Shown here piece after piece: positions 1-4,635 of a stretch of DNA of 4,635 nt. The DNA lies in the IMG/VR virus record IMGVR_UViG_2675903254_000011; one strand, given 5' to 3'. The stretch is from a virus (taxonomy: Duplodnaviria > Heunggongvirae > Uroviricota > Caudoviricetes). A model generated the notes under the pieces. It was given only the letters and a program-made list of their open reading frames with translations. It ran no database searches and was not told the origin of the DNA. The position numbers and the translations under genes are program-made. The stretch's first letter is position 1. Every line of letters begins with the position of its first letter.

Positions 1-446
1 GTCACCCAGTTACCGTTACGCTGCAACTGAATCAGCAGGCGGACGGATGCCGGGTTACGGTCACCCTGTGAGGTGGTCTCCAACAGTGACTGCACCCCGA
101 AGGTGACCCGCAGGCGGTCAATGTTCGCGGATGTAATGGTGCGCGTTACCGGCTTTGCCTTCGTCACTTCCACGCCCAGTCCGGTTTCAGCTCCGGATGA
201 CTCAAAACCTTCCGGCGGTGTCTGCTCCTGCTCCCCGGCGCGCCAGACCGCTGTCACACCATGTATCACAGGATTACCGTCCGTGTCCGTCAGCGGGGTT
301 TTGTTCACCAGAATACTCTGCAGCCCCTTCACCGGACCTTCCACCGGTCCCTCACCGATGGCATCAATCACGCTCATCATCTGCGTGGACTTAAGATTGT
401 CCTTTGCCTCAACCGGCGTGTGCGCCTTGCCGCCACCTTTACCCAC
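1..446 (-). CDS. J: Tail tip / central tail fiber (host specificity) protein J, N-terminal part; 3' end lies beyond the left window edge
   Basis: My minus-strand translation from GTG at 446..444 reads (M)GKGGGKAHTPVEAKDNLKSTQMMSVIDAIGEGPVEGPVKGLQSILVNKTPLTDTDGNPVIHGVTAVWRAGEQEQTPPEGFESSGAETGLGVEVTKAKPVTRTITSANIDRLRVTFGVQSLLETTSQGDRNPASVRLLIQLQRNGNWVT with no stop to position 1. This closely resembles the lambda gpJ N-terminus as I recall it (MGKGSSKGHTPREAKDNLKSTQLLSVIDAISEGPIEGPV...RLRFTFGVQALVETTSKGDRNP). A Shine-Dalgarno-like AGGAGAGGGGGA lies at 451..462. It is absent from the ORF track because it has no stop inside the window. Confidence 0.85.
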   Translation of the reverse strand, partial: MGKGGGKAHTPVEAKDNLKSTQMMSVIDAIGEGPVEGPVKGLQSILVNKTPLTDTDGNPVIHGVTAVWRAGEQEQTPPEGFESSGAETGLGVEVTKAKPVTRTITSANIDRLRVTFGVQSLLETTSQGDRNPASVRLLIQLQRNGNWV

Positions 447-486
447 TCTGTCCCCCTCTCCTGTCTGATGTCTGAATCTGTTTATG

Positions 487-521
487 CCCCAAAAACGACA
501 GGCACCCCGGAGGGTGCCTGT
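487..521 (-). terminator. Intrinsic-terminator-like hairpin on the minus strand, ~40 nt upstream of the J start
   Basis: Perfect 10-bp stem (plus 498..507 acaggcaccc pairs with 512..521 gggtgcctgt) with a 4-nt loop. On the minus strand it is followed directly by CGTTTTTGGGG (plus 487..497). There is no U-tract on the plus-strand side, so it is oriented for minus-strand transcripts. Confidence 0.55.
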
Positions 522-554
522 GTCATGACGGAATAAAATTTCTGAATTTCTTCA

Positions 555-659
555 CATTTTCTGTACGCCCCCGTGGCAGATATCATTCCCGGGCGTTACA
601 GTTTTTTCGGGCCAATAAAAACAAAACCCCCTGTGGTTAATCTTCATTTTCTGTTCCCG
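555..659. repeat. Imperfect direct repeat units in the I-J spacer core
   Basis: Exact 10-mer cattttctgt at 555..564 and 646..655. CCCCC(T)GTGG at 568..576 and 627..636. TTCCCG at 586..591 and 654..659. Read directly from the sequence. Confidence 0.35.
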
Positions 660-690
660 CAGCCTTCGGTCACTGCGGGATTTTTTCGCT
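655..690 (+). terminator. Intrinsic-terminator-like hairpin on the plus strand, abutting the 3' end of gene I
   Basis: 8-bp GC-rich stem (655..662 tcccgcag pairs with 673..680 ctgcggga). The loop ccttcggtca contains a C-UUCG-G tetraloop-like motif. It is followed on the plus strand by TTTTTT (681..686) then CGCTTTT. On the minus strand the hairpin is followed by ACAGAAAATG, with no U-tract, so it is plus-oriented. Confidence 0.55.
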
Positions 691-691
691 T

Positions 692-1176
692 TTATGCCTG
701 CCGCCCGATAACCACCACCTTCCCGTCACCGCCTTCATCACGGGTACTGATGTCCTGGGAGATTCGCCGTGAGCCAACCAGCATTTCACCGTAAGGCACC
801 GGCATCGGGTTCCCCTGAGCAATCATGTTGTCCAGTGAGGAAAAATACGTGTTCTGTCTGCCGTTATCCGTTGCGCGGTAATCCGGTGTTTTTGCCTTCG
901 GGGCCAGCATCTGTGCCACACCACCCAGTATCATGCTGGCACCCAGTGAAAACAGCATCGTGGTGGCAGAAAAACCGCCGGCACTCAGCGCTGCACCCCA
1001 GGCTGCCATCGATGCTCCGGCCGTGAAGAAAGAGCCCACGATGGCTGCCGCCCCCAGCACAATCTGCAGTCCACCTTTTCCGGCCCCGGCCAGTCGCGGC
1101 AAAGTTGTAAATCCCCGTGAAGGCAGATACGTGCCAGTGGCGGTGACGCCAGGCTGAATGCGTTCGTCGTTGCCAT
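692..1176 (-). pseudogene. I: Tail assembly protein I, disrupted: N-terminal 24 codons in one frame, C-terminal domain in another, apparent internal deletion of ~187 nt
   Basis: The ATG at 1176..1174 (SD-like GGGAGAGG upstream) opens MATTNAFSLASPPLARICLHGDLQ, matching the recalled lambda gpI N-terminus (MAATHTLPLASPGMARICLYGDLQ...). After LQ the frame reads unrelated sequence to a stop at 985. A different minus frame (track ORF 692..1102, open from 1201) encodes LPRLAGAGKGGLQIVLGAAAIVGSFFTAGASMAAWGAA...NTYFSSLDNMIAQGN...GEMLVGSRRISQDISTRDEGGDGKVVVIGRQA, matching the recalled gpI C-terminal domain. ATG-to-stop is 485 nt here against 672 nt in lambda. Confidence 0.65.
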
Positions 1177-1827: not shown

Positions 1828-2526
1828 TTACTGCGAAAGTTTATTGATGGAAAGGAAACCGCCAAAATTAGCCACCATGCCGCGCATCTCACACCCGCGC
1901 ATGCACTTGCTGCATCTGTCCTTACGGATATCGGTGGTGGGTTTATCGAACTCATCCGCCACAGCAGGACCGTTATACCCGCATTCATCTCCCCGGTAAT
2001 CCCACATACAGGTGTTCGCCAGCATGATGCGACCGGGAAACAGCGCCCCGTCCGTCTCGGTCGGTGTGGCCAGCACAAACGAGGCCGTCATGGCCGTCAG
2101 CGATGACATCTGCTCCACCACCCAGCGGTCAGTCAGCTCCTGCTCCGGGTCGGCCTCCGGATTGCCTGCCACAAAGTTCACCGCATCCAGAAAACGGGCA
2201 TACACCCGGCGGCGGACCACCGTGGCACCCACCAGGCTCTGCAAATCCTCCGCCATCCCGGTGACAAGACCGAACAGATTGGACACCGTCAGCGACGGGC
2301 GGGCACTGCTGCCCTTTCCGTTCATCTCAAAGCCACTGCCCTCAATCGGGTACGCCTGATATTGCCGCCCCTGCCAGGTCACCGGCTCCCTTTTTTCATT
2401 CAGCTCATTGCAGAAAAAATACCGCTCACCGCCCTGCACCGTCAGGTCGATTTCCCAGAGCACCACCCGCGGTGACTGCTCTGACTTAACCGACTCGTTC
2501 AGGCTTTCTTCGTGAATATCCTGCAT
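1828..2526 (-). CDS. L: Minor tail protein L
   Basis: The track ORF 1828..2553 contains MQDIHEESLNESVKSEQSPRVVLWEIDLTVQGGERYFFCNE...NFGGFLSINKLSQ, resembling recalled lambda gpL (MQDIRQETLNE...GFLSINKLSQ, 232 aa). I place the start at the ATG at 2526..2524, which overlaps the M stop in a TGATG arrangement and gives 232 aa. The ATG at 2553 is an alternative 9 codons upstream. Confidence 0.88.
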   Translation of the reverse strand: MQDIHEESLNESVKSEQSPRVVLWEIDLTVQGGERYFFCNELNEKREPVTWQGRQYQAYPIEGSGFEMNGKGSSARPSLTVSNLFGLVTGMAEDLQSLVGATVVRRRVYARFLDAVNFVAGNPEADPEQELTDRWVVEQMSSLTAMTASFVLATPTETDGALFPGRIMLANTCMWDYRGDECGYNGPAVADEFDKPTTDIRKDRCSKCMRGCEMRGMVANFGGFLSINKLSQ

Positions 2527-2867
2527 CAGTTCACCACCTGCTCTATCGTGCAACTGAAATCACTGTACCGGGCATTATCCGTGACACTCCACTCACGGCA
2601 CACAACCCTCACCGTCCGGTTATGTTTCGGCGGTCGCCACAAAAAGGCACGGTAACCACCATGCCACGATAAAAACTCTTCCAGCCAGCGCCTGGTTGAC
2701 TCATCCGTCACCCGGAACACCGCCTGAAACGTCTTCAGTTGAGGATTCAGCCCTGTGGGGCGGCGCTGTTCATAACCGTCACCAAACCGCACCCTCACCA
2801 CCGACGGCTTCTCACTCACCTGCATCCCTTCACGCGGGACCAGATGCAGCGTTTTTATCTCAGCCAC
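2526..2867 (-). CDS. M: Minor tail protein M
   Basis: 113-aa ORF: MAEIKTLHLVPREGMQVSEKPSVVRVRFGDGYEQRRPTGLN...FLWRPP...IEQVVN, resembling recalled lambda gpM (MKTFRWKVKPGMDVASVPSVRKVRFGDGY...FEQVVN, 109 aa). The start is GTG at 2867..2865, preceded by GGAGGA and overlapping the last H codons. The position matching the lambda ATG is ATA here. Confidence 0.82.
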   Translation of the reverse strand: MAEIKTLHLVPREGMQVSEKPSVVRVRFGDGYEQRRPTGLNPQLKTFQAVFRVTDESTRRWLEEFLSWHGGYRAFLWRPPKHNRTVRVVCREWSVTDNARYSDFSCTIEQVVN

Positions 2868-4635
2868 TCAGCATTCCTCCGTCACGTCGCATGGACAGCA
2901 TCACCGCCTGCACCCGCTGGTCAATCAGCTGCACAAGACTGCCTGCCGCCTCCGGCCCTATCTGGCCATTAGTCCCGTCATTCTGAATGGCGATATGGTA
3001 GACCGGGGAATACACCAGACCCGCACTGCCGTTCATACTGCCCACCGCGCGCACACCCAGCGAGCCATCCGCCGCCCGCGTCAGAGGCATAATGGCTTCA
3101 GGTCCGGCCTCCCCCATCAGCCCGGCCCCTTTTGCAAAGGCAAAGTACGTGGGCGTATCCACAATACTGTTGCTGTACGCACTCAGGTTTGCCGAGGTAT
3201 ACACGCCGCCTTTTGCATTGGCCACCGCCCCGCCCAGCCAGTCACCAATGCTGCCGAGAAATCCTCCCGCACCGGACATACCGTTTGCCGCCGTCTTAAT
3301 TCCGTTGACAATCGCGGCATTCATAAGAACTTTTGATATTTCCTGCAGCACTGATGAGGCCCAGCTGCGCCATTCCACTTTATTCCCGTTCAGCATCTCC
3401 GTGATGTTATTCACCATCCCTGAGATACCCTCCGTCGCAAGCTGTGCTGCCTGTGAGGCGTAATCGGACGCATTATCCACCCAGTTACTGAACCCCTCCT
3501 GCAGCCCTTTCTGCCAGTCCGCACGCTGCACATCCGATTCGGCATAAAAGGCTTCCTGCTCTTTCAGACGTTCACTCAGATACTGTGCATTCTGCGCCAG
3601 AGCCTGTCTGTAAAAATCCTCACCGATATCCCCGGTCTGATACTGAGACTGAAGGTCCGCATCCTTCTGGCGGAAGCTGTCGCGGATCTGCTGCAACTCC
3701 CGCATGCGTTCTCTGGCTCGTTCCCCCTGCCCGTACCCCAGCAGTTCAGCATCATTCGACGCACGCGCAGCCGCATTCTCATTCTTCAGTGTCTCTTCCC
3801 GGGATCGCAACTGTTCCCGGATTTTTTGCTGGTCAATCAGGGCCGCATTACGCAGCAGCTCCTGCTTCTGCATCTCCGTCAGGGTTTTCAGTTCGCCCTG
3901 CGCAGTCTGGTATTTCAGCTTCGCCAGCTCTGTATTCTGCCCCACCAGTGCCAGTTGCTCTTTCTGCTGCTTCAGCAGCCGGGAAAAACTGTCTTCCGCT
4001 TTTTCCGTCTCTGATTTTCCACCCCGGGATTTGGGTTTATTCGCCTCGTTATTGCGCCAGGCTTCCAGGGCATTACTGATATAACGTTGTCTCGCCTCCT
4101 GATACGGATCACCCACAAAACCGAGGTCATCCGCCGCATACCCCAGCCGGACACGCTCTTTTTCTTCCCCTTTCAGTCTGGACAGGGCCAGCTCACGCTC
4201 TGTTTTTGTCAGGGCACTCTGCTGTTTATCATCCAGAGTGGCCTGTGGCAGCCGTAACGGCACATTCACCAGTCCCTGCCGCTGCTGAAGCAGTTCATTA
4301 CCCAGCCCCAGCAGACGGTTGAATTCCGTATGCTGACCATTCATAACCAGCATGGACTGGTACACCTTATTCTGCTCTGCCGCCTGCTGACGAATTAACG
4401 CCACACGACGGTCTTCCAGCCCGGCAAGCACATCCTGAATGGACTGCGCTTTTTCCTGCATCTGTGCCAGACGGGACTGCTCAACGGCAAGCTGCTCTGT
4501 TGCCTGAGCAAGCCCTTCCGTTACGGTCTTCACCGAGGTCAGATGGTTTATCATGAATCCGTCACCGGTCGTCCAGCCCGGGTTCGCCAGAACATACTGA
4601 TATCCTGCGATTTTTTCCTGCAGGGATTTCACCCG
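2860..4635 (-). CDS. H: Tail tape measure protein H, C-terminal ~590 aa; 5' end lies beyond the right window edge
   Basis: A continuous minus-strand frame runs from the window edge to TGA at 2862..2860. It encodes a long Q/E/R/K/L-rich predicted helical region followed by a Gly/Ala-rich hydrophobic segment (GMSGAGGFLGSIGDWLGGAVANAKGG) and a C-terminal tail, as is typical of tape measure proteins. It sits immediately upstream of M-L-K-I-J as in lambda. The track ORF starts at an internal GTG (4632); the frame stays open to 4635. Confidence 0.88.
   Translation of the reverse strand, partial: RVKSLQEKIAGYQYVLANPGWTTGDGFMINHLTSVKTVTEGLAQATEQLAVEQSRLAQMQEKAQSIQDVLAGLEDRRVALIRQQAAEQNKVYQSMLVMNGQHTEFNRLLGLGNELLQQRQGLVNVPLRLPQATLDDKQQSALTKTERELALSRLKGEEKERVRLGYAADDLGFVGDPYQEARQRYISNALEAWRNNEANKPKSRGGKSETEKAEDSFSRLLKQQKEQLALVGQNTELAKLKYQTAQGELKTLTEMQKQELLRNAALIDQQKIREQLRSREETLKNENAAARASNDAELLGYGQGERARERMRELQQIRDSFRQKDADLQSQYQTGDIGEDFYRQALAQNAQYLSERLKEQEAFYAESDVQRADWQKGLQEGFSNWVDNASDYASQAAQLATEGISGMVNNITEMLNGNKVEWRSWASSVLQEISKVLMNAAIVNGIKTAANGMSGAGGFLGSIGDWLGGAVANAKGGVYTSANLSAYSNSIVDTPTYFAFAKGAGLMGEAGPEAIMPLTRAADGSLGVRAVGSMNGSAGLVYSPVYHIAIQNDGTNGQIGPEAAGSLVQLIDQRVQAVMLSMRRDGGMLSG

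Follow-up and report, generated by a model that had tools for sequence, protein, structure and literature searches.

Why should a terminator-like hairpin that faces plus-strand transcripts stand at the 3′ end of gene I, in a tail operon that is read from the minus strand? The window, the whole 4635-bp stretch of DNA analyzed here, is part of a lambdoid prophage tail operon of the E. coli O157 type, and every protein-coding gene in it was confirmed to lie on the minus strand (Table 1), as the first-pass annotation had stated for the recognizable genes. RefSeq describes identical or near-identical DNA as ‘C40 family peptidase’, ‘tail assembly protein’ and ‘phage attachment tail tip protein J’; around the I–J junction it marks only ‘tail assembly protein’ and ‘gpJ’, and leaves the small-RNA gene discussed below unmarked. 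Our analysis leads to the conclusion that the hairpin and its T-tract are very probably the Rho-independent terminator of a small RNA of the PasB/EcOnc22–24 family, encoded by a self-contained cassette between I and J that is antisense to the tail operon.

Table 1. Features of the window, with positions, strand and the basis of each assignment.
Feature	Position	Strand	Basis
H, tape-measure protein	4632..2860	-	ORF
M	2867..2526	-	ORF
L	2553..1828 as listed, start probably near 2526	-	ORF
K, JAB and NlpC/P60 domains	from 1817	-	ORF, domains
I, C-terminal part	stop codon 692-694	-	ORF
Terminator U-tract T6, transcription end	681..686	+	sequence; last U of the equivalent tract is the published PasB 3′ end (E2348/69)
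Terminator stem-loop of small RNA	655..680	+	sequence, RNAfold, invariant stem/variable loop, RNAalifold consensus (25 alleles)
PasB/EcOnc22-family small RNA, predicted ~78 nt: A-rich 5′ part, core GUUAAUCUUCAU (636-647), terminator	609..686	+	nhmmer, allele alignment
Candidate -10 hexamer TACAGT	597..602	+	predicted from TAnnnT in every allele
Candidate -35 hexamer GTGGCA, 18-nt spacer	573..578	+	predicted from conserved GTGGC island with variable flanks
CRP-like palindrome TCTGA-N6-TCACA (TCTGAATTTCTTCACA)	541..556	.	9/10 CRP core positions; hypothesis only
Second terminator-like hairpin, ACAGGCACCC-TCCG-GGGTGCCTGT followed by CGTTTTT	489..521	-	terminator scan, relatives
I-J non-coding spacer, 245 bp, contains the cassette	447..691	.	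ORFs, comparison with relatives
J, beginning; GpJ FNIII-A domain	GTG start 446	-	ORF, domain

On the plus strand, the element reads T655, CCCGCAG (656–662), a loop CCTTCGGTCA (663–672) that contains cUUCGg, CTGCGGG (673–679) and A680, followed by T6 (681–686), CGCTT (687–691) and TTA (692–694), which is the I stop codon TAA on the minus strand. Pairing of 655–662 with 673–680 (UCCCGCAG/CUGCGGGA) gives a stem of 8 bp with six G–C pairs, and RNAfold of 640–700 (+) recovered this hairpin at −15.2 kcal/mol (z = −2.7; 2 of 200 shuffled sequences were equally good). Sequence and fold agree with the first-pass description of a GC hairpin with T6 at 655–690 in plus-strand orientation, and the T-tract does end 5 nt from the I stop codon. 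The GC-rich stem stands directly before the U-tract, as in an intrinsic terminator, and the nominal 10-nt loop (CCUUCGGUCA), which includes the two inner pairs of cUUCGg, is longer than the loop of approximately 3–8 nt found in textbook terminators; other alleles have loops of 9–16 nt. A simple terminator scan of the window did not call the hairpin at 655–680 because its nominal loop exceeds 8 nt, and called a trivial neighbor at 675–689 instead. The UUCG-type loop highlighted in the first reading is present in the window allele but is not conserved across alleles, and is therefore not essential.

Conservation of the hairpin in related prophages had been proposed as a check on its significance. 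We collected 80 viral contigs solely by similarity to the C-terminal part of protein I and then extracted the I–J interval, so that the resulting 78 I-anchored loci are unbiased for the hairpin. The stem, the following A and T6 beside the I stop are identical in 77 of these loci, and the remaining locus has a single stem mismatch. The loop is represented by 23 different sequences of 9–27 nt among the I-anchored loci and the matches of a pattern search of the viral collection. When annotated records are included as well, there are 206 copies of the element, of which 193 adjoin an I stop, four are upstream members of tandem arrays and nine are in unrelated AT-rich contigs. The invariance of the stem in the main family could partly come from recent spread by recombination.

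These data bear on the possibility that the hairpin is a functionless product of chance. Short GC hairpins and T runs are common, the window has 11 terminator-like matches in the simple scan versus 3.8 expected, and the same 7-bp stem with T6 occurs in unrelated AT-rich phage contigs. However, 77 of 78 loci keep the element while the flanks and loops vary, its fold has a z-score of −2.7 and published RNAs end at this site (see below), so that the comparative and published data effectively refute such a reading, which we regard as vanishingly improbable. The nine pattern matches outside I–J were rejected as homologues, since the phage contigs that contain them are AT-rich and unrelated and have only the generic stem in common. 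Seven unrelated AT-rich viral contigs (L088, L110, L115, L129, L144, L178 and L188) have in common a non-coding region of approximately 130 nt (GGAGCCACCAGCTAAAGCCGCTTTCAAG...) that ends in a CCCGCAG/CTGCGGG hairpin with other loops and T6; this region may be a different small RNA of another host group.

The stem is in effect a near-perfect palindrome, so it would also form in the late tail mRNA directly after the I stop, where it could act as a 3′ stabilizer, as an RNase III or RNase E processing site, or as an I–J translational coupler. On the minus strand, however, the stem is followed by AACAGAAAA and no U-tract, which limits the terminator geometry to the plus strand, and the plus-strand A and T6–8 are as invariant as the stem itself. 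Lambda-like phages have the same I and J genes but not the element, and tandem arrays repeat the hairpin together with a promoter, far from any I stop. A role in the tail mRNA is therefore highly improbable.

Two sets of published RNAs coincide with the plus-strand terminator. PasB (pathogenicity-associated small RNA B) of EPEC E2348/69 is an 83-nt RNA from prophage PP6, whose minus-strand coordinates in NC_011601 are 1466343 to 1466261 (Pearl Mizrahi et al. 2021, Table S6, PMC8550237). It is strongly Hfq-dependent, with log2 changes of −6.8 and −2.4 in an hfq mutant, has 37 RIL-seq interaction partners, and has a 3′ end on the U-tract according to RNA-seq coverage and Northern blot in E2348/69 (PMC8550237). 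In NC_011601, plus-strand gene I has its end at 1466255 and plus-strand gene J its start at 1466496; PasB therefore occupies the spacer between them, is antisense to the tail operon and terminates with the final U of the tract, leaving 5 nt to the I stop. The Northern probe for PasB, AATCCCGCAGTGATCGCGGAGCT (PMC8550237, Table S6), is the reverse complement of the hairpin loop and 3′ arm of the commonest allele (loop CTCCGCGATCA).

In EHEC Sakai, EcOnc22, EcOnc23 and EcOnc24 are homologous plus-strand Hfq-CRAC peaks in prophages Sp15, Sp14 and Sp11, respectively (Tree et al. 2014, Table S2, PMC4104026). The EcOnc22 row reports a Northern band of approximately 85 nt that is destabilized without Hfq, and a Rho-independent terminator was not flagged for any of the three (PMC4104026); their targets were still listed as ‘targets unknown’ in a 2021 review (PMC7873438). 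The tail operons of Sp15, Sp14 and Sp11 are all on the minus strand, the peaks are in or beside the I–J spacers, and the three Sakai copies are mutually identical. The Table S2 coordinates refer to the first version of the Sakai record and are approximately 136 nt lower than those of NC_002695.2 at 1.94–2.93 Mb. Two calibrations agree on this offset of approximately +136: the old AgvB peak is at 1941783–1941835 versus an Rfam match at 1941920–1941981, and the StxS 3′ end is given as 2,925,944 versus a tR′ terminator T-tract at approximately 2,926,079–81. The strand convention of Table S2 was also checked with AgvB. After correction, the EcOnc22 peak covers positions 4851–4911 of locus L082, from just after the conserved −10 hexamer into the 5′ arm of the hairpin, whose stem is at 4896–4902/4913–4919 and is followed by T7 at 4921–4927. 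Uncorrected, the same coordinates put EcOnc22 over the J-proximal hairpin (window approximately 470–530), a placement ruled out by the AgvB and StxS offset; a shift of this size matters for features as small as the EcOnc RNAs, since it would assign the RNA to the wrong hairpin.

No EHEC homologue is given for PasB in Table S6 (PMC8550237), and we found no published link between PasB and EcOnc22–24 in the literature searched, where ‘EcOnc22’ is named in one review only. PasB and EcOnc22–24 are one family at the same site. The ends, sizes and Hfq binding or dependence of these RNAs come from the work of others on homologues, and the anatomy, homology and conservation from the present analysis.

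The window allele matches both published RNAs in position, with the hairpin and T6 (655–686, plus strand) between the minus-strand I stop and J start codons, and each RNA gave one significant nhmmer match on the plus strand. PasB matched 614–685 (+) with E = 1.7e-7 and a global identity of 74%; a second PasB match at 545–586 (E = 2.1) fails the inclusion threshold. The 77-nt Sakai EcOnc22 gave a single match at 619–686 (+) with E = 1.6e-5 and a global identity of 72%. The 3′ stem-loop is followed by poly-U and its stem is identical to those of PasB and EcOnc22; the U-tract, the core GUUAAUCUUCAU and an A-rich 5′ segment are also common to the three, whereas the 5′ 30–45 nt or so and the loop of the window allele differ from both published RNAs. 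Like PasB, the window RNA would be antisense in the I–J spacer with a 3′ end 5 nt from the I stop, and it has the same terminator stem, U-tract, −10 position and GAUCUUCAUUU-type core at a comparable length (approximately 78 nt predicted versus 83 nt), but the terminator loop is CCUUCGGUCA rather than the CUCCGCGAUCA of PasB, and the first 30 nt or so are different. With EcOnc22–24, which are Hfq-bound in Sakai, it has site, strand and terminator stem in common, and the differences are again in the 5′ region and the loop. A covariance model (R1) scored 73.9 bits at window 609–687, a value that is not independent because the window allele is in the training set. Rfam gave no relevant match in the window at E ≤ 1 and none in the Sakai I–J loci at the gathering threshold, although AgvB was found in a control locus.

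A short plus-strand RNA starting somewhere within 522..654 and ending at the hairpin had been suggested in the first-pass annotation. This idea is supported by a predicted allele at 609–686 (+) that is 72–74% identical to the published RNAs and has a conserved −10 hexamer, and by the presence of PasB and EcOnc22–24 at homologous loci. A generic sigma-70 promoter scan called no promoter in the window, so the promoter assignment is based on conservation and on the homologues, including the published PasB 5′ end. Elsewhere in the family the −10 hexamer is TAATGT, TAGTGT, TACTTT and others. In E2348/69, the published PasB 5′ end is 6–7 nt after the equivalent hexamer TAGTGT and 1 nt from the predicted start, and in Sakai the offset-corrected EcOnc22 CRAC peak begins at the equivalent start position. 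The window RNA is accordingly predicted, by alignment with these homologues, to start near G609, inside the range first suggested, which would give an RNA of 78 nt.

Upstream of the candidate promoter is a CRP-like palindrome (Table 1). Class I CRP sites are centered near −61.5 and resemble TGTGA-N6-TCACA. The center of the CRP-like site is 48.5 nt upstream of the −10 hexamer in 45 of 47 promoter variants, approximately 60.5–61.5 nt upstream of the predicted start, and the site recurs with each tandem cassette. The pattern by itself is not significant in the window, as 31 of 200 shuffled sequences match it, and the whole 531–560 block is conserved, not the half-sites alone. Among alleles, the half-sites are kept and the 6-nt spacer between them varies. 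PasB is higher in overnight static, glucose-free LB than in DMEM, the opposite of the CRP-repressed Spot 42. This pattern agrees with CRP control but is suggestive only; growth phase confounds the comparison and other explanations exist. The site near −61 may control the small RNA, which provides a testable regulatory hypothesis.

The I–J spacer is 60 nt in the lambda-like phages HK630 and vB_EcoS-640R1 and 41 nt in mEp213, compared with 245 bp in the window. The short lambda-like spacer has only a hairpin on the tail-operon strand and no small-RNA cassette, which indicates that the plus-strand hairpin belongs to an insertion cassette of the ‘moron’ type: extra DNA between conserved late genes, absent from close relatives and equipped with its own transcription signals. 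Spacers fall into size classes of 234–260 bp (window-like), approximately 343 bp and approximately 851 bp, and every class begins directly after the I stop with the same stem, A and T6. The spacer and its flanks (window 400–760) are matched in 1044 of 5426 complete E. coli genomes, at a median of five places per positive genome. A spacer 100% identical to that of the window is present in O157:H7 strains such as 9000 and E2865. Two minus-strand ORFs of 31 and 34 amino acids were rejected as spacer proteins; neither is conserved, with some alleles lacking the start codon and indels causing frameshifts.

The 851-bp class (L004 and 14 other loci) carries a gene for a periplasmic Cu/Zn superoxide dismutase (sodC; Pfam Sod_Cu, E = 4e-32) in the spacer; the gene opposes the tail operon in direction and immediately precedes the small-RNA promoter. 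In these loci the promoter elements of the small RNA are kept and the CRP-like box is absent. An antisense gene that points at a hairpin which always adjoins the I stop would be expected if the hairpin were mainly an insulator that stops antisense transcription from the I–J ‘moron’ slot from entering I and K, with no functional RNA of its own. However, sodC has its own terminator approximately 60 nt upstream of the cassette promoter, the promoter elements persist there, and a discrete Hfq-bound RNA of approximately 83 nt that ends at the hairpin is documented in homologues, which makes a purely insulating role very unlikely. Insulation follows automatically from a terminator and need not be its purpose. 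The same applies to the earlier proposal that the hairpin blocks antisense transcription into K and I: the effect stands as a consequence of the same terminator, but not as a separate function.

Two further variations in spacer length were seen. Spacers of approximately 338–344 bp (L034 and 27 other loci) have an extra segment of approximately 100 bp with a symmetric hairpin (AAAACCCCGGTATCTGCTGATACCGGGGTTTCTCTTT) between A and T runs, at spacer positions of approximately 205–245 in tail-operon orientation, which might serve as a bidirectional terminator or represent a further small RNA. In L014 and L026, the spacer is longer because 14 nt (TCAGACATCAGACA) are directly duplicated immediately before the J ribosome-binding site (corresponding to approximately 455–470 of the window).

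The second terminator-like hairpin of the window, on the minus strand at 489–521, is strong, with a 10-bp stem and a tetraloop, and precedes the J start by approximately 45 nt. In relatives, a C–G pair of its stem is replaced by T–A in a compensatory change, and a lambda-like counterpart, AAACCGCC-TGCG-GGCGGTTTTGTC, is found inside the 60-nt I–J spacer. Tandem array L141 has this J-proximal hairpin once and the cassette four times. It lies outside the small-RNA cassette; Q-modified polymerase presumably reads through it.

Variants of PasB are reported to differ by a few nucleotides, usually with one variant per genome (Zhu, Shabalina & Storz 2026 preprint, distribution); with so few differences reported, the window allele was probably outside the BLAST net of that study. 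The family is far more diverse than these few differences, and the median of five spacer copies per positive genome contrasts with the usual single variant. We gathered 43 distinct alleles of 75–85 nt, and three loci (L131, reverse strand; L136, 1–710; L141, reverse strand 640–1520) contain two to four tandem cassettes in the I–J spacer, every cassette having a separate CRP-like box, −35, −10 and terminator. RNAalifold of 25 alleles found the terminator to be the only common structure, with no conserved 5′ RNA structure among them, and detected no covariation in the terminator of the main family because its stem never varies. A paralogous cassette subtype with the same architecture and place has another, longer terminator (UCUCCCGU/ACGGGAGA followed by U6–7), in which four pair positions are changed on both sides; these stems give independent support for the hairpin structure. 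The paralogous subtype also has a near-consensus −10 hexamer, TACAAT, and a body that contains CUCCUUAAGG, an anti-Shine–Dalgarno-like motif. This kind of RNA is already known, having been published twice under two names, and the window allele is an undescribed variant of it. The second terminator subtype, the number of alleles and the arrays of up to four cassettes are useful refinements rather than surprises, and the finding is correct but largely already explained. An Rfam family for the PasB/EcOnc22–24 RNA would improve prophage annotation in pathogenic E. coli.

In the proposed mechanism, O157-type lambdoid prophages carry, inserted between I and J, a cassette of promoter, RNA of approximately 78 nt and terminator. 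Transcription by sigma-70 RNA polymerase would begin near G609, after the TACAGT hexamer, proceed through an unstructured, A-rich body that contains GUUAAUCUUC, and end with release of the RNA at U681–686. The 3′ hairpin and U-tail would also form the usual Hfq-binding, stabilizing end. By analogy with the PasB and EcOnc22–24 RNAs, which are Hfq-bound, Hfq-stabilized and expressed from the lysogen, the product would act in trans by base pairing; as a side effect, the terminator would keep small-RNA transcription out of I and K. For the window allele, we infer the start site, expression and any CRP control from these homologues.

The RNA would be perfectly complementary to approximately 78 nt in the I–J region of the late tail mRNA, in its own prophage and in sibling or incoming lambdoid phages with the same cassette. 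It is therefore conceivable that it also works as a cis-acting or allele-specific antisense RNA that cleaves or silences the I–J junction, as a form of prophage–prophage or prophage–phage interference that might be tuned by cAMP-CRP through the site near −61; we give this no more than a slim chance. If it were true, the 5′ allelic diversification and the arrays of up to four cassettes would reflect an arms race. Pairing of the RNA with the J translation-initiation region was no better than for shuffled sequences in three alleles (fraction at least as good 0.12, 0.46 and 0.51) and was rejected. Lambda OOP RNA, a phage RNA of approximately 77 nt, has a promoter and an intrinsic terminator of its own and is transcribed against a phage operon; it covers the 3′ end of cII and exerts its effect in cis by way of RNase III. 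In contrast, PasB-type RNAs overlap only the intergenic spacer and, according to published data, act in trans with Hfq.

The favored assignment, a terminator of a PasB/EcOnc22–24-family RNA, was also compared with other prophage elements. The AgvB/AsxR anti-sRNAs and HnrS (EcOnc10–12) are likewise short, Hfq-binding, multicopy prophage RNAs of EHEC, in which the 3′ terminator module is conserved and the 5′ part varies more, and they too occupy insertion-tolerant lambdoid slots. Their site, however, is near the lysis genes and downstream of the late promoter rather than in the I–J interval, and their sequences are unrelated. Identity with AgvB/AsxR was rejected on the basis of that location and of their Rfam models (RF02702 and RF02703), which, like any other Rfam family, do not match the window, and identity with HnrS was rejected because its locus is different. 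Tail-region ‘morons’ such as prophage sodC are also autonomous units of promoter, gene and terminator between late genes that are absent from lambda, and some relatives carry sodC in the identical I–J slot in the same antisense orientation; the cargo in the window is, however, a non-coding RNA of approximately 80 nt and not a protein gene.

None of the complete E. coli genomes in the collection is identical (100%) to the whole window, the best match being 98.3% in several pieces. Compared with intact relatives, the window is missing 193 bp of K and I, with a junction at approximately 1096–1101 that shows 6-nt microhomology. The K stop and the middle of I are gone and the frame is shifted; the K frame stays open as far as 864, and I is left as two ORFs, an N-terminal one of 63 aa (1176..985) and a C-terminal one of 136 aa (1102..692). 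The window prophage is probably tail-defective and, with this deletion, may be decaying. An otherwise similar prophage, that of L001 (E. coli E2865), has an antirepressor Ant gene and two Arc-family genes between K and L (7663–9258), an insertion that is absent from the window and marks another insertion slot in the tail operon.
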